64,000 nt of DNA from a virus (taxonomy: Duplodnaviria; Heunggongvirae; Uroviricota; Caudoviricetes; Crassvirales), in the IMG/VR virus record IMGVR_UViG_3300031952_000007, positions 14,504 to 78,503 of that record; one strand, 5' to 3'. The notes beneath the pieces are model-generated. The model saw only the letters and a list, made by a program, of their open reading frames with translations. It made no database searches and had not been told where the DNA came from. Below are positions 227 through 63,039 of the stretch, in pieces; the first letter of the stretch is position 1, and each line of letters begins with the position of its first letter. A program made the translations under genes and the position numbers.

Positions 227-2500
227 TTAATTTTCTACTAATTCTTTAACAGTTTCTTCTGTTATTGCCATTGTGTTATATCTATCTAGATTTACTTTCT
301 GTTTGTGATATTTAAATAGATCACTCATTGCATCAAGAAATTCTTTAGATGGAGTGGTATATGCTGTAAATAATCCAAGCATAGTGTTTATGAACGGAAG
401 TCTTTCAAGAGTGCTCTTCACTTCTACATAAAAAGAATATATTTCTGGATCAAATAGATTTTGCTGTTCTGCTATTTCAATCATTGCTATATAAATAGCT
501 GACTCACCTCTAGTGTAATTATCATCAGCATATTTATCTAGTGTTTGTAACTTGTGATACAACTCTGAAGAAACATCTGATAATACATTCATTTTATCAA
601 ATGTTGATCTGTGCTTAGTTCTTAACTCAGCAATCAATTTACCAGTGACTATTCTTCTAAATGCTTTGTGTGTTCCGTCCATAAATTTATCTAATTTAAT
701 CCAATTGTGTACATTGATTTTTTCTAAGTTCTTAAGTTCTCTATCAGAAAACTGAACAAATCTAATTTTATCACTTTTTACAGTGGTGAACAAAAGATCC
801 ATTCTTTTAGCATCTTCTGATCCACCATAAACTGTAAGTTGTTTGGTTTTATGAAGATCCTCAAGATTATACACTTCACTCACCCATTTACAATTAGAAC
901 CAGAAACATCTCTTAACAACTTTGTAGCCTCTTTACCAATAATCTGTCCTTTCAATTTAACTCTTCTATCTTTAGATATGGAAACTTTAACTTTCTTTCT
1001 AGCATCAATAAAAGATTGAGGAACAACTAGTGCATCAAGATCTATCCATGTTTTTGTGTACATTTCTATAATAGCATGAAACTCCTTAATTGCAGCTCTC
1101 CACAAACTCTTGTTAATTTTCTCAAGTCCCAATAGAGTTACATAAGTGCTGTAATTAGATAGTCTTCTCAAACTACCAAGAGTGAAATTAGAAGATTTCT
1201 TCATAAATAATGTCTTCTTAGACCATCCCATAGGAGCTATACTCTTAGTGTATTCCTTCTTAGTTACAGGAACCCTATCAGTGTATTTGTATACAGAACT
1301 AACAGAATTATTATCCTGATACCTATCTATACTAGTTTCCCAACTACCTCTACATTCTTTGAACTTACCGTTCTCAATTTTAAAATTAACAGTGTATTCT
1401 CCCAAGATCCACTCTCTATTTCTATAGATTGTTTTCATATCAAGAATGTTAATTCCCTTAAGTTTTGGTTCTGTAAATTTAACTGTAGCATAATTATCTA
1501 TTTCTCCTGCATCAAATTTTACATCTCCAACAGTGACAAACTTCTTTTTATTAGCATAGAAGTTCATAACCGCCTGGATATCTTCTGTATCTTGAGAGAG
1601 TTCATTGTATTTATTTACAAAGAAATCAGCCACCTTTGCTATTTTATCAAGAATCAATGCTTTAGCCTCTTTGGTATATCTAATACTTTCCCTATTTGGT
1701 GTAGGAAACAATCCATCCATAAGACTAAATCTCAATGCTACAGGAAACTCTATTGTATCAATCCCAATCTTCTCGAAATCAATAGGATAGTAGACATTAT
1801 CAAGACAAAGATGTAATTTATCTGTACTAGATAATTCTGAATACTGAAAATGCTCACTTCTGAATATCTTAAATTTATTATCAACTTGACAATCAAAATA
1901 TACATTCTCGAAATAAGCAAGTTGCTCTGGTATCTTTGCATTAAAATAACTTCTATCAGAATAAGTTACAGGAACAATAACTTTAACACCATTCTCTTCA
2001 AGGGTGGTTTGTTGGTACAATAGATCAATGCTGTTTGTGTCTTCTCCTTCGTACATCATATACTTGCGTTCAACACCATCCTTACGACATACAAAATAGA
2101 AACTAGAACTATAAGCTAGAGGAGCTTTAAAGCCCAAGCCCATCATACCTAGTTCTGTGTTACTGTTACGCTTTGTACTCTTACCATACTTACTAATAAT
2201 ATTTCTAACATCATCTGCATCTAAGCCAATACCAAAATCCTCAACACTAAATTCATAATTGTCTTCTTTGTTAATACCAAATTTTACAACTATAGGTTTG
2301 TCAACCCCAGCTCTTCTATGACTATCAAGTGCATTAGATGCACATTCTCTGATAGTGGAGCCTATTGAATCTGAATAGAGATTCTTACTTAACATCTGCA
2401 TCAATATCTGAGCAGAATCTAAGTCTAATGACATTCCAATTGAATCTTGTGATGTTCCTTCCTCAAGGATGGTGGCTTCTGTTTGTTTTTCTAAAATCAT
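227..2500 (-). CDS. Hsp90/HtpG-like GHKL-family ATPase domain protein (757 aa)
   Basis: N-terminal Bergerat-fold motifs in Hsp90-like order and spacing: N-box ECASNALDS, G1 box DFGIGLD followed by ...NIISKYGKSTK, G2 box GMMGLGFKA. The remaining ~550 aa have no recognisable motifs. Confidence 0.6.
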   Translation of the reverse strand: MILEKQTEATILEEGTSQDSIGMSLDLDSAQILMQMLSKNLYSDSIGSTIRECASNALDSHRRAGVDKPIVVKFGINKEDNYEFSVEDFGIGLDADDVRNIISKYGKSTKRNSNTELGMMGLGFKAPLAYSSSFYFVCRKDGVERKYMMYEGEDTNSIDLLYQQTTLEENGVKVIVPVTYSDRSYFNAKIPEQLAYFENVYFDCQVDNKFKIFRSEHFQYSELSSTDKLHLCLDNVYYPIDFEKIGIDTIEFPVALRFSLMDGLFPTPNRESIRYTKEAKALILDKIAKVADFFVNKYNELSQDTEDIQAVMNFYANKKKFVTVGDVKFDAGEIDNYATVKFTEPKLKGINILDMKTIYRNREWILGEYTVNFKIENGKFKECRGSWETSIDRYQDNNSVSSVYKYTDRVPVTKKEYTKSIAPMGWSKKTLFMKKSSNFTLGSLRRLSNYSTYVTLLGLEKINKSLWRAAIKEFHAIIEMYTKTWIDLDALVVPQSFIDARKKVKVSISKDRRVKLKGQIIGKEATKLLRDVSGSNCKWVSEVYNLEDLHKTKQLTVYGGSEDAKRMDLLFTTVKSDKIRFVQFSDRELKNLEKINVHNWIKLDKFMDGTHKAFRRIVTGKLIAELRTKHRSTFDKMNVLSDVSSELYHKLQTLDKYADDNYTRGESAIYIAMIEIAEQQNLFDPEIYSFYVEVKSTLERLPFINTMLGLFTAYTTPSKEFLDAMSDLFKYHKQKVNLDRYNTMAITEETVKELVEN

Positions 2501-7000: not shown

Positions 7001-7213
7001 TTAATCCTTCGAAGATACAACAATTTTGTCAGATTTCAAAATTGTTGTCTTAGTATCCATAAGGTTTGGATCTTTAATAAGTTGCTCATAAAGATACTGC
7101 ACTTCATCAAGATTTTTACCAAAACTACTGTCAATCATCTTACCACCTATAGTGACATAATAATAAGCTGGCTCATTAAATTCTTCTCTTTTAACTAATT
7201 CAATTTTCTTCAT
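7001..7213 (-). CDS. hypothetical protein (70 aa)
   Basis: Small co-oriented ORF with a 4-nt overlap with the helicase exon. Confidence 0.4.
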   Translation of the reverse strand: MKKIELVKREEFNEPAYYYVTIGGKMIDSSFGKNLDEVQYLYEQLIKDPNLMDTKTTILKSDKIVVSSKD

Positions 7214-7983
7214 ACATACTTAATTTTTGATTGATTTAACATTGATAGACTCTCTACAATTTTCTTTAGTTCTGGTTTCTCATTCAAACATAAAATGTGC
7301 AAGTCAGCAATCTTTCCATGATAGTCTAATTTAATAGCTCTATTTAGGATTTGAGAACTCTCTTCAGCATTATATGTAAAGTTGGTGAGGATTACAGAAT
7401 CAAGATCTGGATAGGTTACACCAATCTTTCCCATTGCTGCTAATGCAAGATGATTTATCTCTCCATTCTTGAAGTCTTGAAAATTACCATCATTCTTAGA
7501 CTTACTATGATAGGAAGGACAACCAACCTCATCAGCAACCTTTGCAAGACCTGTGAACACTAACACTCGTTTATCTGACAAATCGTTTAGAAGAGCCTTT
7601 AAATAGCTCATTTTGGCAATTGATGATTGAGAGAGTCTGTTTCTAGCTAATGCTAAATGCATAAAGTTTCTACCTTCTCTTTTCAACTTTTCAATCACCC
7701 AAGAATAACCATCATATTTCTGTTTCTCTGTCTTTTCTTTACCATTCTTGTCTATTGTAACTTTCTTTGTGTCTAGATTGATAAGATGTACAGAGATTTG
7801 ATAGTCTGCTAATATACCATCCTCAATTCCTTGATCTGTGGTGTAGCTTCCTATCTCTTTAATCTCTTCCCATTGCTCAATAGTTTCTGATGATACAGTT
7901 CCTGATAGACACAATGTGTACGTACAATTATCAATTATCTCTTTACACAATTCTCTTTCATTCTCACTTGCACTGTGGAATTC
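7210..7983 (-). CDS. SF2 helicase, 3' exon (helicase C-terminal domain)
   Basis: Frame is open upstream of the annotated TTG 'start' (7950) back to 7983, giving EFHSASENERE-LCKEIID... Carries helicase motifs III (LSGT), IV (VLVFTGL) and V/VI (ILTNFTYNAEESSQILNRAIKL). Joins exon 1 to restore the DExH box. Confidence 0.65.
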   Translation of the reverse strand, partial: EFHSASENERELCKEIIDNCTYTLCLSGTVSSETIEQWEEIKEIGSYTTDQGIEDGILADYQISVHLINLDTKKVTIDKNGKEKTEKQKYDGYSWVIEKLKREGRNFMHLALARNRLSQSSIAKMSYLKALLNDLSDKRVLVFTGLAKVADEVGCPSYHSKSKNDGNFQDFKNGEINHLALAAMGKIGVTYPDLDSVILTNFTYNAEESSQILNRAIKLDYHGKIADLHILCLNEKPELKKIVESLSMLNQSKIKYV

Positions 7984-9044
7984 CGTTTATGTTAACTTTT
8001 AGTTTCCTAAAAGACCAGACTATATCTTATTACTAAATTAAAATTTTTTGTCAGACCAATAATAACCTCCACATTTACCTTTTCTTTTAATAGCCTCAAA
8101 AATTCCTGATGGATATTTACAAGGATTTATTATATTAAAAGCTTCAGTAACAGAAGAAAAAACTTGTAATAAATTTTTATTGCAATCATACATATATACA
8201 ATTTTAGATTTATTTATATAACTCTTGTTATAATTATTAGATAAATAATCTTTTTCATATAAAATTATATGATTTCCTGCAGTTATATTTGTCATCTTTT
8301 TTGAAAGAACATTGCTAATACTAGTGATTTTAACATTAAGGTTTTTAGCACACTCCCCTATAGATGAGAAAGTGTTTATATAATCATAATTTAAAGATAA
8401 TACTACAACTTTTTTTTTATGACCATCCGAAGATCTTTGTAAACTATCTTTAGTGCGATCTACTATTAATCCTTTTCCACCTTCTCTAATATTAGTTAAA
8501 TTATTATAGTTATTTATCCAGTATTTTTCTTTTTCTTCCCAATTGTTTTTATCACATTCTTCAATTAATGTAATAATAGGATACAAGTTTTGTTTTTTAA
8601 GAGTTTTTATCCAATTACAAACATGAGTTTTTACATTTTTTGTAAAAGCTGCACATTTATGTTGACTTAATCTTTGAGACAACCTTGATACTGTAACACC
8701 AACATATCTAATTTCCTTTGTTATAGGATTAGATAAACTATAAATTTTATATGTTCTTTCCATAATAGTATTATAATGAATTTCACTACAATACTACATA
8801 AATTAATTTAATAATCCAAGCGTTTCATGTTAAATAATTATTAACATTACTCTACTCCCTTTATACAAAATATTGTATAGGTTTCGATAGTCGTTGAACC
8901 TTATTCCCATTAGGAATCTTGGCTGCTGATTGTCCAATTCTTATCTCTTTTACTATAATATAGTCATTACTGCTATATGGAGTGTATAAGACTCTAAGGA
9001 GTTTCCAGTCAATTAACTTGGTTTAAAGTGAACTTATATAATCA
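7984..9044 (-). mobile_element. group I intron (IA2-like) inside the SF2 helicase gene, carrying a GIY-YIG HEG
   Basis: Minus-strand core elements: P-like AAUUGACUGGAAACUCC (+8992..9017), Q AAUCAGCAGCCAAG (+8920..8938), R GUUCAACGACUA (+8888..8903), S AAGAUAUAGUCUGG (+8010..8030). P6 and P9 hairpins present. The internal guide sequence GUUCAC can pair with the exon end GUGGAU with a U.G wobble at the 5' splice site. The 3' end is a G in ...ACG|GAAUUC. Confidence 0.7.
8038..8763 (-). CDS. GIY-YIG homing endonuclease (intron-encoded)
   Basis: N-terminal YKIYSLSNPITKEIRYVGVT (GIY...YVG), then R..H, EKYWINNY and NIREGG motifs. Lies between R and S of intron 1 (P8 position). Confidence 0.8.
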   Translation of the reverse strand: MERTYKIYSLSNPITKEIRYVGVTVSRLSQRLSQHKCAAFTKNVKTHVCNWIKTLKKQNLYPIITLIEECDKNNWEEKEKYWINNYNNLTNIREGGKGLIVDRTKDSLQRSSDGHKKKVVVLSLNYDYINTFSSIGECAKNLNVKITSISNVLSKKMTNITAGNHIILYEKDYLSNNYNKSYINKSKIVYMYDCNKNLLQVFSSVTEAFNIINPCKYPSGIFEAIKRKGKCGGYYWSDKKF

Positions 9045-9350
9045 ATCCACTATAAAGAAATCAAACTCGTATTCTGTATATTTCTTTACAGAACTAAAGT
9101 TTACATATGTAATGTTGGGATTATTATATCCCCACAGCTCACATTCATTCATCCAGGTATCTCTAAGCTTGTTGTCTGGATAGGCAATTAGTAATGTACA
9201 ATCATAATCAAACTTCTTTTTAAGAATCTCAATTGTGGTTTTACATTTACCAAACCTCATTGCAAGATTTAGATATCCAGACTTATTCTTTTTGTAGAAT
9301 GTCAATGATTTCTTTACAAATTCATCCTGCAGTTTGTCTTGTACATTCAT
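9045..9350 (-). CDS. SF2 helicase, 5' exon (motifs I-II)
   Basis: Walker A-like AMRFGKCKTT; ends ...DFFIVD immediately before the intron. Spliced product reads ...FFIVD|EFHSAS..., i.e. the DExH box is completed across the junction. Confidence 0.65.
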
Positions 9351-14041: not shown

Positions 14042-15020
14042 CATCCCAATCAATGATTTCATACTCATCATCAGCATCAAATGTTTTAGGCTTGTTCTCT
14101 GTATGAAGACCACCTTTCATGAAAGAATACACATTATTATAAAAGTTTATGCTCTCTTTAAAATCATCCATCATCTTAAGCTTAACCTTCTTAATCTTTT
14201 TCAAGAAGTCTTTTAGCTGTGGAGTTTCAAACACTACATAATCAGCAATACAATGTCTAACGAAGATTTCCTTCCTGAACTTACCTTTTTTTGGTAATTG
14301 ACTGTATTTGATGTTCCTCTCTTGACAATAGAACTTCTTAATCATCTCATCACCAATCTTACTGTCAGAATAATTCAAACATGGAATATTAAACTCTTCT
14401 TGAATGTCCTGTCTAAGTTGTATCTGATTGTTTCCTTTGTATAAAGGATGTTCACAGTCACCAATAGTAATCTTGTAGAACTCATAAGTGGCCATAACAT
14501 CATTCCTACAATAGTCTTTAGTCATTTGAATTTCTTCATCTGTCATATCAACCTTTGTATGATGAATAGGCATCTCTTCAATGTTCTCAAGATCCATCTC
14601 AAACTCCAGTCTCTTTAGACTCACCATACGATTCTTATTATCGTAGTGGTTCACCTTGAATACATCAATTTGTTTAAGACTAAGATCAGCTTCTCTGTAT
14701 TTAGGCATTACATCATAATTAGCATCATGAATAACATCTCCTGCATTAACAGCAATCTTAGCACAAATATCAAGATAGCTTAAAGAACCCCATTCTTCAT
14801 AGCTTTTAAGGATGAATTCAATCACTTGACTGTCAAACCTAAGATTGTTATACCCAACCCAATAATGGTCCTTATAAGCCTCTGTGAACCTCACAAAGCT
14901 ATCAAGATTATTAGCAAGCTTACTCACTTCAAACTCAAAATATATGTCTGTTTTTACATCATAAACTCCTACAAGAAATAGTTCTTGCATAGTTTCTATG
15001 TCAAATATTAATACTTTCAT
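14042..15020 (-). CDS. family-B DNA polymerase, 5' exon (3'-5' exonuclease domain)
   Basis: Exo I LIFDIET, Exo II YNNLRFDSQVIEF, Exo III YCRNDVMATYEFY. Ends ...YEIIDW(D) at the intron; inferred spliced junction is ...EIIDWDAYYPAIII (motif A, DxxSLYPSII-like). Confidence 0.7.
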
Positions 15021-17680: not shown

Positions 17681-17716
17681 ACTTACAAAGAACCACTGCC
17701 CATGTTGCCATGAGGA

Positions 17717-17880
17717 TTAGACTATATCATCACCTGTTCTAGGTGCTGGACGCTTATTCCTGTTATTAAGAAGACTTTACTTCTCAGGTAGTCGTTGAAC
17801 CTTCTTAGAATGTATTCTAAGCTTGGCTGCTGATTGTCCTAACTTCACTGTTAGGAGTTCCAGCAATTCATCCAGTTTTT
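17717..17880 (-). mobile_element. group I intron core (third copy), no homing-endonuclease ORF
   Basis: Minus-strand P GAUGAAUUGCUGGAACUCC (+17854..17873), Q AAUCAGCAGCCAAGC (+17822..17839), P6 hairpin cuuagaaugcauucuaag, R GUUCAACGACUAC (+17789..17804), S GAUGAUAUAGUCUAAUC (+17720..17732). Elements are in the same order and near-identical in sequence to introns 1 and 2. Confidence 0.5.
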
Positions 17881-17966
17881 AATTAAGTATTCCTACTTAA
17901 TGGGTCCAATTCCCAAACCCTGGTCTTTTCAAGACCCAATAAATCCATTTTTACAAGCTTAGATCT

Positions 17967-17994
17967 TGTCACAATTATTTTAAAAATTGTGACA
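17967..17994. repeat. perfect 10-bp inverted repeat TGTCACAATT-n8-AATTGTGACA
   Basis: Read directly in the sequence; AT-only 8-bp spacer attttaaa; sits in the ~700-bp noncoding stretch between intron 3 and the terminator at 18346. Confidence 0.8.
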
Positions 17995-18345
17995 TAATCA
18001 GTAAGGGAAACTAACCAGTGGTATAAAAGCCACCAGCTCCACCATCTAGTTTATGAACTAGAAAACTAACTTTCTTTTTACACCATATAGTCTTAGGTGG
18101 TAGAATTCTCAAGATGTCTCAAGCTCTTACGATTGTAACTATTATGTTCCTTGGACAGTTACCATCCAGAGAACTACGCTGCTACAGCAACATTAGCAAA
18201 AGCCATGTTGATGATCATTGCACCTTCGTTCTGACGTACTAACTTAGAGTTGTCGTTTGATTGTTAATCAGTGTCTTTGAGTACTGACTGCCTCTTGCTT
18301 GTGAACCTACCTGATACATGAAAATCAAATGCCATACCACCCCCA

Positions 18346-18380
18346 TTTGAAAAAATATTTGCAGAGAATTTCTCCTCTGC
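18346..18380 (-). terminator. rho-independent terminator
   Basis: Minus strand: TTGCAGAG-gagaaatt-CTCTGCAA followed by atATTTTTTC, directly 3' of the stop at 18401. Confidence 0.6.
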
Positions 18381-18400
18381 AAATATAATCATTCTTGTTA

Positions 18401-60453: not shown

Positions 60454-63039
60454 ATGGCAAGTTTTACAGACGCAATATCAACATTCAATCCTTACGTAGC
60501 TCAACTCCCCGTTGAGCTCATGGCCCAAGTGGGTATGCAGAAGCAAGCTCAATATGATGCTGGTGTACAAAAAATCCAAACCAATATAGATAATATTGCT
60601 GGTTTGGATATTATGAAAGATGTTGATAAAACATATTTAAAATCAAAACTTAATCAACTAGGTTCCAATTTAACAAAAGTAGCAGCAGCAGATTTCTCTA
60701 ATGCCCAATTAGTTAACTCTGTTGGTGGTATGGCTACACAGATTGGTAAAGATTCTTCAATACAATCTGCTGTAGGTTCCACTGCTTGGTATAGAAAACA
60801 AGCAGCTGAAATGGAAAAGGCTAGAACAGAAGGAAAATCCTCTGAAGCAAATGTTTATGATTTTAATCGAAAAGCAAATGCGTGGATGGAATCAGATAAA
60901 GTTGGTGAAAAGTTTGATGGTAGATATGTTCCATATACAGATGTAAAGAAAAAAGCAATGGAAGCAATTAAAGGATTGCATCCAAATTTACAACAGTATG
61001 ATATCCCTTTTGAAATAAAAGATGGTAAAATAGATCAAACAAAAATTGCTGATGCACTAAAACGTTATAAAATAGAAGGTGTTGATGAAGGACAAATTGG
61101 TGCTGCTATCACTGCATCTTTATCTTCAGAAGATCTTAATCAATTATCTATTGAGGGAAATTATCAATTTAGAGGAGTTTCTTCAGAGCAGCTTGTAGGT
61201 ATAGCTCAAACTAATTATAAAAATGATAAAGATGAAGCTATTACAACTCTTAAATTTTTAACAGAGAAAAAAGCAATTACAGTAGATCCCACTCTAAGTG
61301 CTAAAATAGATGAACGAATTGAGGCTGTACAGAAACAAATAGGTGATGATAAAGTTCCTGGTACATTAGATTCTCAATTAAAAGACGCTATAGAATTAGC
61401 AACTAAAAATCCAGAACAAGTTAAAGCCTCTTTGTATAAAGATGGATTTATAAAAGAATTTGCAAATGCCTTCACTTGGAAAAACCAAGAAGAAAGTTAT
61501 GAAACCAATCCTCTTAAAGAGCAAGAGAATTTTAGAACAGAGATGGTACATAAACAACAAGTAGAAAATAGACAACGTTACGAGTTTGGTGTTACTACAA
61601 ATTTAAGAAGACAAGAAATTGCAATGTCAGCAGAAACTCTATTGCTTAAAAAACAAGAACTTGCATTAAAAAATGCAGAGCTTTATGGAGTAGATGCTCC
61701 TTGGATAACTTTAGGAAATGAAACAGATGATAAGTTACATGCAAATGATAAATTTGTAGATCATGTCTCTTCTGTTCTAGGTGGTATTAATGGAAATGTT
61801 CAAAGACTAATGAATGCTGGATATACTAAAGAACAAGTAAACATGATGTTGACTAAAAAATTAGATATCCCAGCAAAAGCAGCAGGCACTATTCAAGCAA
61901 TATTAAAAGATCAAAATTATTTAAAATCATTACAATCAAAAGAAGCTACACTAAGAGCTGAATCAGATAAAGAAGCAGGTGTTACTGGTTTGAAAGCACA
62001 GCTATTAACAAACAAGCCTGGATTAGATATAACATTTAAAGGTACTAAATTACAATTAAGTCCTGAAGAAATATTAGGAATACAATCAGCAACAAAAACA
62101 ACTACACAAGCTTCAAAAGGAGGAAACAGACGTACAGTGACAGTTGACACTCAAGGATTTAACCAAAGACAATTAAATTTTGTAAATTCAATGAAGGGTG
62201 TAATGTATGGTAGTTTTGAACCAGGTCCAAAACCTGCTGGTTATGATGCTGTTATAGGACAAGTTAATGCAGTAACTGGACAATATGCTAATGCTGTTAC
62301 TAAATTATCATCTGCAGTACGTAAGTCGGGTGAGATATATAATCAAAAACTTGCACCTCTTGTTACAGCATTTGTTCCACAAATTAAAGCTTTGGGATCA
62401 GATAAGAATGGTTCTCCAACAGCTACTACATTAGGTCAAGTTAGCGGACTTATAACTGCTACTATTGCAAGAGGAGTTAAAGCTGATAATGTATATGATC
62501 CTCCTGTTGCTTCTGAAATGTTACTAGAAAAAAATTCAAAAGACACAAGAATATTTATACAACAGTCTGGAGATAATTTTGAAGTGATTCTTAAAAGTGA
62601 ATCAGATCCTTCAAAGCTTCAAAGAATCAAAGCTACAAAAGAAGAAGTGGTGGCTAACTTTGGTGCTAAGTATGTAAATAATAATACTCAAGAATCAACA
62701 AGACTTAAACTTGGTAGAGGAAATACAAATATTACTGGAAATGCAGAAAACTCAATGATGCAAAAATCATTTGGCGATTTCCCAGGAATTACAAAAATGA
62801 ATATAACTGCTGATCTTGATCAAGATATTAGTAATCCAGATTTATATGTTCCTATGATTAACGTAATGAAGAAAAATGGAAGATGGCAAACTTTTGCTCT
62901 TTCTGGAACAAATAGTTTATCAAGAGTTGGATTTGATCAAGGTAAAACAAATTTAAATGCATTAACAAATGATGTTTTATTAAAAGCTTTAAAAAGAGAA
63001 TACCCAAATTACGATTACTCTCAATTAGATATTAAATAA
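60454..63039 (+). CDS. large virion protein (861 aa)
   Basis: Uninterrupted 2.6-kb co-oriented ORF. Confidence 0.6.
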   Translation: MASFTDAISTFNPYVAQLPVELMAQVGMQKQAQYDAGVQKIQTNIDNIAGLDIMKDVDKTYLKSKLNQLGSNLTKVAAADFSNAQLVNSVGGMATQIGKDSSIQSAVGSTAWYRKQAAEMEKARTEGKSSEANVYDFNRKANAWMESDKVGEKFDGRYVPYTDVKKKAMEAIKGLHPNLQQYDIPFEIKDGKIDQTKIADALKRYKIEGVDEGQIGAAITASLSSEDLNQLSIEGNYQFRGVSSEQLVGIAQTNYKNDKDEAITTLKFLTEKKAITVDPTLSAKIDERIEAVQKQIGDDKVPGTLDSQLKDAIELATKNPEQVKASLYKDGFIKEFANAFTWKNQEESYETNPLKEQENFRTEMVHKQQVENRQRYEFGVTTNLRRQEIAMSAETLLLKKQELALKNAELYGVDAPWITLGNETDDKLHANDKFVDHVSSVLGGINGNVQRLMNAGYTKEQVNMMLTKKLDIPAKAAGTIQAILKDQNYLKSLQSKEATLRAESDKEAGVTGLKAQLLTNKPGLDITFKGTKLQLSPEEILGIQSATKTTTQASKGGNRRTVTVDTQGFNQRQLNFVNSMKGVMYGSFEPGPKPAGYDAVIGQVNAVTGQYANAVTKLSSAVRKSGEIYNQKLAPLVTAFVPQIKALGSDKNGSPTATTLGQVSGLITATIARGVKADNVYDPPVASEMLLEKNSKDTRIFIQQSGDNFEVILKSESDPSKLQRIKATKEEVVANFGAKYVNNNTQESTRLKLGRGNTNITGNAENSMMQKSFGDFPGITKMNITADLDQDISNPDLYVPMINVMKKNGRWQTFALSGTNSLSRVGFDQGKTNLNALTNDVLLKALKREYPNYDYSQLDIK

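Follow-up and report, generated by a model that had tools for sequence, protein, structure and literature searches.

A probable mobile group I intron with a GIY-YIG endonuclease gene between two motif II codons of a phage SF2 helicase gene

The sequence analysed here (the window) is a 64,000-nucleotide (nt) stretch of the Crassvirales record IMGVR_UViG_3300031952_000007 of IMG/VR (positions 14,504 to 78,503). On its minus strand, the gene for a superfamily 2 (SF2) helicase is split by an intervening sequence of 1061 nt (7984..9044), which is very probably a mobile group I intron of the phage 'T4-like' IA type, seated between the D and E codons of the DEFH box and carrying an open reading frame (ORF) for a predicted GIY-YIG homing endonuclease in its P8 loop. 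Judged by its conserved elements, the intervening sequence is a group I intron, a new example of a textbook kind, and it would be expected to leave the helicase transcript by self-splicing. Unless stated otherwise, coordinates refer to the window and all features lie on the minus strand.

Exon 1 (9045..9350) comprises 102 codons, encodes motif I (RFGKCKT) and ends with ...YEFDFFIVD, the final D being the residue that opens motif II. Its last codon, GAT, is immediately followed by an in-frame UGA stop (9044..9042) formed by the first bases of the intron, and the ORF is listed as 9350..9042. Exon 2 (7210..7983; 257 codons and a stop) starts with EFHSAS and encodes the remainder of motif II, motif III (SGT) and the Helicase_C domain; its ORF is listed from a TTG (7950..7210), and the frame is open further upstream, reading EFHSASENEREL from 7983 onward. 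Joining 9045 to 7983 gave a 359-amino acid (aa) protein with the DEFH box. An earlier annotation of the same letters (the sequence-only reading) had placed the end of exon 1 after ...DFFIVD at a TGA, had taken exon 2 to be open 5' of the TTG with EFHSAS as its start, and had proposed that joining after GAU rebuilds a DExH motif II; the minus-strand sequence agreed on each point, and the rebuilt DEFH is that of more than 100 uninterrupted homologues (356-362 aa). The coordinates of that reading proved right throughout, and its interpretation holds in its main points.

Uninterrupted forms of the joined protein were recovered from a database of 5.8 billion proteins: P0001 (99% identical) and P0002 (96%) are both 359 aa long, and more than 100 further homologues show 66-75% identity over lengths of 356-371 aa. 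Among the best 120 homologues, 119 are uninterrupted (356-371 aa, at least 99% query coverage) and P0120 (328 aa) covers 92%. The DNA loci of P0001 and P0002 (L026 and L027, respectively) are metagenomic alleles and were used as intron-less references. Both genes measure 1080 nt, the length of the joined exons, and aligned to them without gaps (97.7% and 95.9% identity), exon 1 corresponding to nt 1-306 and exon 2 to nt 307-1080. Therefore, the 1061 nt (9044..7984 exactly, as first read) have been inserted after the D codon and before the E codon of motif II, within a conserved catalytic motif as had been claimed. The junction is alike in the window, L026 and L027, GAT|GAATTCCACAG (D|EFH), and the insertion point cannot be shifted by even one base, because the intron opens with T where exon 2 opens with G, and closes with G where exon 1 closes with T. 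The closing G of the intron, the omega-G (7984), directly precedes GAATTC, in agreement with the predicted 3' end before GAAUUC. The spliced junction is predicted to read ...AUAGUGGAU|GAAUUCCAC... (TTTCTTTATAGTGGAT|GAATTCCACAGTGC in its 30-mer form). The G+C content of the intron is 25%, versus 31-34% in the flanking exons. The helicase gene is also uninterrupted in 25 related IMG/VR loci and in the best 80, which were inspected, of 243 IMG/VR helicase loci found with the family alignment.

The host gene is, by its domains and motifs (ResIII/Helicase_C; motifs I, II DExH and III), an SF2 helicase gene, as the sequence-only reading had it. With Pfam, the joined protein reached 26.8 bits for Helicase_C and 24.0 bits for ResIII, both above threshold (23.5 and 22.5 bits, respectively), and the ResIII match (residues 90-132) spans the exon junction at residues 102/103; PHROGs likewise returned DNA helicase. 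GKC/T, DEFH and SGT are kept across the helicase family, and IDEFHS is near-invariant in the close family. A sequence search of the PDB with the helicase gave no match at E <= 0.01. Among cultured phages, the best protein matches were Flavobacterium and Bacteroides phages (27% identity) and no near-identical DNA was found; the phage lineage of the window probably infects Bacteroidota.

The secondary structure of the intron was drawn by hand and by folding of an ORF-deleted construct, and P1, P3-P9, P7.1 and P7.2 could all be drawn. The P, Q, R, S, P6 and P9 elements claimed at the outset were found in the correct order. In P1 (9027..9051), the exon sequence AGUGGAU (9051..9045) pairs with the guide GUUCACU (9033..9027) around the loop UGAUUAUAUAA, with U9045.G9033 at the 5' splice site. 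The P3 5' strand CCAAGU (9016..9021) pairs with GCUUGG (8816..8821) as 9016..9021 with 8821..8816, forming the P3/P7 pseudoknot together with P7. Between them, the segment 8881..9015 holds P4-P5(a,c)-P6(a), J6/7 and the P7 5' strand, with P as AAUUGaCUGG, Q as AAUCAGCAGCC and R as GUUCAACGACUA (8899..8888). The pairings drawn there are P4 UGaCUGG/UCAGCA, P5a UCUUAU/AUAAGA, P5c AUAUAG/CUAUAU, P5 and P6/P6a. Between P7 and the P3 3' strand (8827..8881) lie the hairpins P7.1 (8881..8858) and P7.2 (8847..8827), an extension typical of subgroup IA, whose layout AUCGAAA-hairpin-GAGUAGAGUA-hairpin-GAAAcG also occurs in relatives. The P8 5' strand AUUAUUAAAUUAA (8803..8815) was paired in the fold with the 3' strand UUAAUUUAGUAAU (8029..8041) across the ORF, as 8815..8803 with 8041..8029. 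The 3' end (7984..8028) consists of S, AAGAUAUAGUC (8028..8018), including the P7 3' strand UAGUC (8022..8018) which pairs with GACUA, then P9 (CUUUUAG-GAAA-CUAAAAG, 8013..7996) and a 12-nt tail, UUAACAUAAACG, ending with the omega-G. The label 'T4-like IA2' is a putative one that draws on the presence of P7.1/P7.2; the intron has no P2.

When the Rfam model RF00028 was restricted to 7900-9120 (1.2 kb), two partial minus-strand matches were obtained in the right order on either side of the ORF: 8881-9015 (model positions 56-151: P3'-side, P4, P5, P6, J6/7, P7 5'; 33.7 bits, E = 1.4e-6) and 7998-8028 (model positions 221-251: P7 3', P9; 24.4 bits, E = 9e-4). They lie about 850 nt apart with the 726-nt ORF between them, and their rough sum is 58 bits, each being below 50. 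RF00028 yields only half-matches, because the ORF splits the core, the pattern expected for a large P8 insertion. A pooled cmscan of many loci missed the helicase intron even in loci with the identical intron, and cmscan negatives on ORF-bearing introns are therefore uninformative.

Homologues of the window endonuclease led to four homologous introns bearing endonuclease genes, which interrupt the helicase genes of divergent phages at the same D|ExH position: L160 (=L170), L161/L162, L164/L165 (=L167, L178) and L166. The host helicases of L160, L161 and L166 are 32-42% identical to that of the window (alignment A3), and all five introns, spliced in silico after the D of DE[FIVC]H, gave complete helicases of 344-394 aa. 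Since MAFFT aligned the five mini-introns (A1) too poorly in the stretch from P7.1 to P8, pairs were counted by script on hand-anchored strands: 352 of 353 pair cells hold standard pairs, and in the variable helices 239 of 240. As controls, sliding the 3' strands by 1-3 nt left 36-43% of the variable-helix cells paired, and 73% stayed paired when the two strands of a helix were taken from different introns. Changes on both sides of a pair occur at 29 positions (P1, 1; P3, 3; P5, 1; P5a, 4; P5c, 6; P6a, 2; P8, 7; P9, 5), P8 having changed on both sides at 7 of its 8 compared positions; P4, P6 and P7 are invariant across the five introns, and hence give no information either way. P7.1 and P7.2 form with differing sequences in all five, and the 12-nt 3' tail is conserved in the four sister introns. 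In addition, the core motif CAGCAGCCAAG-N(5-35)-GGTTCAACGACTA was found in more than 120 IMG/VR contigs (L039-L158), with at least 100 compact introns; an alignment with 24 compact relatives gave the same layout, with compensatory changes in P3, P8 and P9. The predicted RNA pairings, including the P3/P7 pseudoknot, are thus backed by covariation at the level of sequence comparison. As a separate observation, an IMG/VR sub-family with a bulged A in P4 (TTAATTGACTGG.....CCTTAGAG) was seen in at least four different host genes.

The internal guide sequence proposed earlier, GUUCAC (9033..9028) pairing with the exon end GUGGAU (9050..9045) with a U.G wobble at the splice site, was confirmed in the sequence, and P1 covaries across the five introns (exon/guide): GUGGAU/GUUCAC in the window, GUGGAU/GUCCAC in L160, UUGGAU/GUUCAA in L161 and L166, and AUGGAU/GUCCAU in L164. 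Within 50 nt on either side of the junction, the window differs from both L026 and L027 at four positions only (-10, -7, -6 and -4), all within the last 10 nt of exon 1: TTTATAGTGGAT in the window versus TTCATTATAGAT in the intron-less alleles. The L026-type intron-less site is thus TTCATTATAGAT|GAATTCCACAGTGC (L026 exon sequence AUUAUAGAU); the differences found in L027 only are downstream (+14 and +34/+36). The sole coding change among the four exon differences is I -> V. Each of the four increases pairing with the guide region GUUCACUUUAAA, and the predicted P1 duplex has -7.5 kcal/mol with the window exon versus -0.1 kcal/mol with the intron-less exon. These comparisons suggest that a short piece of exon needed for P1 is co-converted along with the intron; an alternative or additional reason for the exon changes could be protection of the allele against re-cleavage. 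DNA alleles combining the spliced junction with the P1-adapted exon (TATAGTGGATGAATTCCACAG) were searched for in IMG/VR and none was found. Away from the splice site, the window departs from L026 in a second tight cluster of four substitutions, three in common with L027, at 9194-9183 (exon 1 nt 157-168); a recombination patch or the border of a co-conversion tract may account for it.

The homing endonuclease ORF (8038..8763; 241 aa) occupies the P8 loop and terminates within the P8 3' strand (stop codon 8040..8038). The whole ORF stands between R (8899..8888) and S (8028..8018), as first described; in L160 and L164 the endonuclease ORF extends into P7 and P9. The protein has an N-terminal GIY-YIG domain and C-terminal NUMOD1 repeats: residues 8-90 matched phrog_5123, 'homing endonuclease with GIY-YIG motif' (E = 8e-6), and two NUMOD1 repeats were matched. 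Homologues (25, with E from 1e-86 to 1e-11) include one named 'group I intron endonuclease' by its source, and 12 of the 24 aligned ones matched Pfam PF01541 (best E = 7.6e-7). Residues Y8, Y20, G22, R31, H35, E79 and N91 are invariant in the family, with KIY(6-8) and YVG(20-22), which we take to be the GIY-YIG catalytic signature of I-TevI. Searched by itself against PDB sequences, the endonuclease yielded no useful match. An AlphaFold model built on the family alignment (mean predicted local distance difference test score, pLDDT, 87) resembles in its N-terminal domain the I-TevI catalytic domain (1ln0; target TM-score 0.73, root-mean-square deviation 2.5 A), UvrC and T4 EndoII, and in its C-terminal part the DNA-binding region of I-HmuI (1u3e), with which profile comparison agrees. 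The family match, the invariant residues and the modelled fold all point to GIY-YIG, the family named in the sequence-only reading; that the protein is an active endonuclease directed at the helicase site would follow from its sequence relationships. In the homologues P0140 and P0145, the called ORFs start upstream and translate as '...QSAAK...', which is a reading of the intron core CAATCAGCAGCCAAG; these two proteins are therefore intron-embedded and fused in frame to the core.

Immediately before the endonuclease ORF lies a leader hairpin (8765..8797; 15 bp, -14.6 kcal/mol), which ends 1 nt before the AUG and contains the conserved sequence TTGTAGTGAAATTCATTA. This leader is common to intron-borne and free-standing copies whose proteins are about 50% identical: it was also found at L034 (2476-2491) and L035 (2479-2494), and 5' of the endonuclease in L160, L166, L161 and L163. 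Across the copies, the hairpin ends 1-7 nt before the AUG. A start-codon hairpin was predicted in most of nine copies, sometimes with quite different sequence, being weak in L164 and L034 (about -3 kcal/mol), and the leader hairpin of L037 carries a matched one-base deletion in each arm. In T4, start-masking hairpins of I-TevI, I-TevII, I-TevIII, segB and mobE delay translation and protect intron folding (PMC2988022); by analogy, the leader hairpin would limit translation of the window endonuclease. Two other roles were considered for this region. A general phage promoter was ruled out, as the leader occurs once in the window; a scan for sigma-70-type promoters showed no enrichment (14 sites versus 12.9 expected). 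An I-TevI-style autorepression operator was rejected: within the 67 nt 5' of the ORF, the best match to the homing site was 13/20, which 243 of 300 shuffles equalled.

The helicase intron is sporadically distributed. The identical endonuclease is present on at least eight contigs, and six fetched loci from different samples carry the split helicase gene (100% or 99.9% identical). The L026 phage is 94-97% identical to the window over 10.8 kb and lacks the helicase intron; it has instead a 1002-nt insertion (L026 7659-8660) in the orthologue of the window ORF 227..2500 (757 aa), at window position 2136/2139, with a LAGLIDADG ORF (7772-8533) and group I R, S and P9-like motifs. This reciprocal presence and absence of introns is the pattern expected of mobile introns. 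Exact-pattern searches for the helicase intron with or without the ORF gave nothing in IMG/VR and only the already known contig in the JGI metagenomes, and no ORF-less intron at this helicase site was found in either search.

The endonuclease lineage has a second home beside the helicase gene. Outside its own cluster (P0121), the closest homologues of the window endonuclease are free-standing (P0122, 56%; P0123, 57%), as are the more distant P0125 (51%), P0127 (50%) and P0133 (47%). Free-standing copies are located directly upstream of an intact orthologous helicase gene, overlapping its start, in L034, L035/L036, L037/L038, L163 and the P0123 locus; the helicases of L034, L035 and L037 are 28-47% identical to that of the window. 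The intron-embedded copies are those of the window, L160, L161, L164 and L166, and in a neighbour-joining tree of the endonucleases (no bootstrap) the two kinds are intermixed. We tentatively suggest, at somewhat less than even odds, that this GIY-YIG lineage has moved repeatedly between the slot upstream of the helicase gene and the P8 loop at the DExH codons, taking its own leader hairpin along. Published models of mobile intron origin include endonuclease-gene invasion and collaborative homing (PMC3984707), and the two-location pattern, which is here a genomic association, fits both. If the free-standing enzymes also cut the DExH site, these phages would preserve both ends of the proposed pathway of endonuclease-intron merger, and they would also show guide sequence and flanking exon to be co-converted as a unit. 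Distant members of the GIY-YIG family (hmmsearch E from 1e-23 to 1e-35) were also seen as free-standing genes a few hundred bases from intact helicase genes, upstream in L233, L245 and L255/L256 and downstream in L237-L239.

In the mechanism that we propose, the helicase gene would be transcribed through the intron, and ribosomes translating exon 1 would halt at UGA, the triplet with which the intron begins. The RNA would fold into the P1-P9 core, an exogenous G would attack after U9045 held in the U.G pair of P1, and the 3'-OH of exon 1 would then attack after the omega-G (7984), joining GAU to GAA and giving the 359-aa helicase with an intact DEFH. The 241-aa GIY-YIG/NUMOD1 endonuclease would be made separately from the P8-loop ORF, its translation probably being limited by the hairpin before the AUG. 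In a mixed infection, it would cut intron-less helicase alleles near the motif II codons, and repair from an intron-bearing genome would copy in the intron (homing), and with it a minimum of the final 10 nt of exon 1, which P1 needs.

Several results weigh against the reading of the insertion as a mobile, self-splicing group I intron. At the RF00028 gathering score (50 bits), a scan of the whole window did not report the helicase intron, and the covariance-model check that had been called for thus gave a mixed answer, no match at threshold and the two ordered half-matches flanking the ORF. The strands of the five introns were hand-picked against invariant anchors, which inflates the percentage of paired cells and does not create compensatory changes. 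The window endonuclease did not reach E = 0.1 against Pfam PF01541. As regards the RNA itself, only UUUAAA (J1/3) separates P1 and P3, so that P2 cannot be accommodated; the 3' region is short, with a 12-nt tail after P9 and no P9.1/P9.2; P10 has 4 bp at best and is inconsistently supported in the sister introns; and the RNA is very A+U-rich. Because of these four features, efficient protein-free self-splicing is uncertain. The same features, with the G+C content of 25%, would favour an intron that is real and needs a protein cofactor for splicing, be it the endonuclease in the role of a maturase or an RNA chaperone from host or phage, and the overlap of the ORF 3' end with the P8 3' strand (with P7 and P9 too in sister introns) points the same way. 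We nevertheless regard a cofactor requirement as unlikely: the core helices are complete and well paired, P9 carries a GAAA tetraloop, and P7.1/P7.2 are stabilising. Self-splicing in vitro is known for related phage IA2 introns (T4 td, Twort), and GIY-YIG endonucleases are not known to act as maturases.

Rather less improbable, and still a minority view, is that the intron splices and is no longer mobile, its endonuclease being inactive or retargeted and its inheritance vertical. The six contigs, of at least eight with the endonuclease, that are 100% or 99.9% identical could represent one clonal phage, and the window endonuclease scores below the threshold of the Pfam GIY-YIG family; however, the ORF is intact and keeps all catalytic residues of the family, a phage of about 97% identity without this intron but with a different one elsewhere indicates recent gain or loss, and the same pair of intron and endonuclease gene occurs in helicases just 32-42% identical to that of the window. 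We give hardly any weight to a 'fractured' helicase gene, in which an endonuclease cassette would separate two polypeptides made without RNA splicing, as in T4 gene 39/60 or Aeh1 nrdA/mobE. Exon 1 does end with a stop codon, translation of exon 2 could begin at a TTG in its 5' part (11 codons in), and gene callers annotate products of 102 and 234 aa; but such a gene would part D from EFH inside one catalytic motif, and it leaves aside the roughly 280 nt of conserved, covarying ribozyme core around the ORF in five independent lineages, boundaries that follow the U/G rules and rebuild DEFH exactly, and a junction-side exon that has changed to pair with the guide.

Beyond the helicase gene, a second, compact and ORF-less group I intron was detected at 17698-17972 (RF00028, 96.1 bits, E = 1.5e-23), sharing the CAAUCAGCAGCCAAG and AAGGUUCAACGACUA core with the helicase intron. 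No long ORF was found in its flank (17973-18400), and only its core matches cultured phages, e.g. the S-PM2 psbA intron. A candidate third intron at 61798 was rejected, since it lies inside an intact 861-aa ORF and gave no Rfam hit.

For annotation, one 359-aa helicase and one homing endonuclease would replace the 102-aa and 234-aa fragments and the 'hypothetical protein' that gene callers place at this locus, and a mobile intron would be added to a poorly studied lineage of freshwater phages. The near-identical genomes with and without the intron, the four sister introns at the same site and the free-standing endonuclease relatives beside the same gene constitute comparison sets: a natural series for the origin of composite mobile introns and for exon-guide co-evolution.

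That DNA-metabolism genes of phages can harbour group I introns with GIY-YIG endonucleases is already textbook knowledge (T4 td/I-TevI), and no new mechanism is implied here. As in the IA2 intron of T4 td, a phage DNA-metabolism gene is split in a conserved catalytic region, the core has the motifs AAUUG.CUGG, CAGCAGCC, GUUCAAC.GACUA and AAGAUAUAGUC together with P7.1/P7.2, and the endonuclease, like I-TevI, joins a GIY-YIG catalytic domain to a separate DNA-binding region and is preceded by a hairpin right before its start codon. The td ORF sits in the P6 loop, whereas that of the window is in P8; the window intron further lacks both P2 and P9.1/P9.2, its endonuclease has NUMOD1 repeats of the I-HmuI kind, and no operator-like copy of the homing site was found 5' of its ORF. 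Regulation of I-TevI by the hairpin before its start codon has been reviewed (PMC2988022). Phage helicase genes with group I introns were known before, from the staphylococcal myoviruses K, G1 and Romulus/Remus (cited in PMC5526547), which belong to a different phage lineage and share with the window a helicase gene split by such an intron. Free-standing endonucleases paired with ORF-less introns ('collaborative' or trans homing) are represented by the cyanophage S-PM2 psbA intron with F-CphI and by T4 mobE with I-TevIII; the lineage of the window shares with these systems a free-standing endonuclease adjoining its presumed target gene, and differs in that no ORF-less intron was found at the helicase site and that the phages with free-standing copies have uninterrupted helicases. 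Finally, the DNA polymerase intron of SPO1, with I-HmuI, is likewise located in a replication gene and its endonuclease uses NUMOD-type DNA-binding modules (1u3e); the nuclease domain of I-HmuI is HNH, whereas that of the window endonuclease is predicted to be GIY-YIG.

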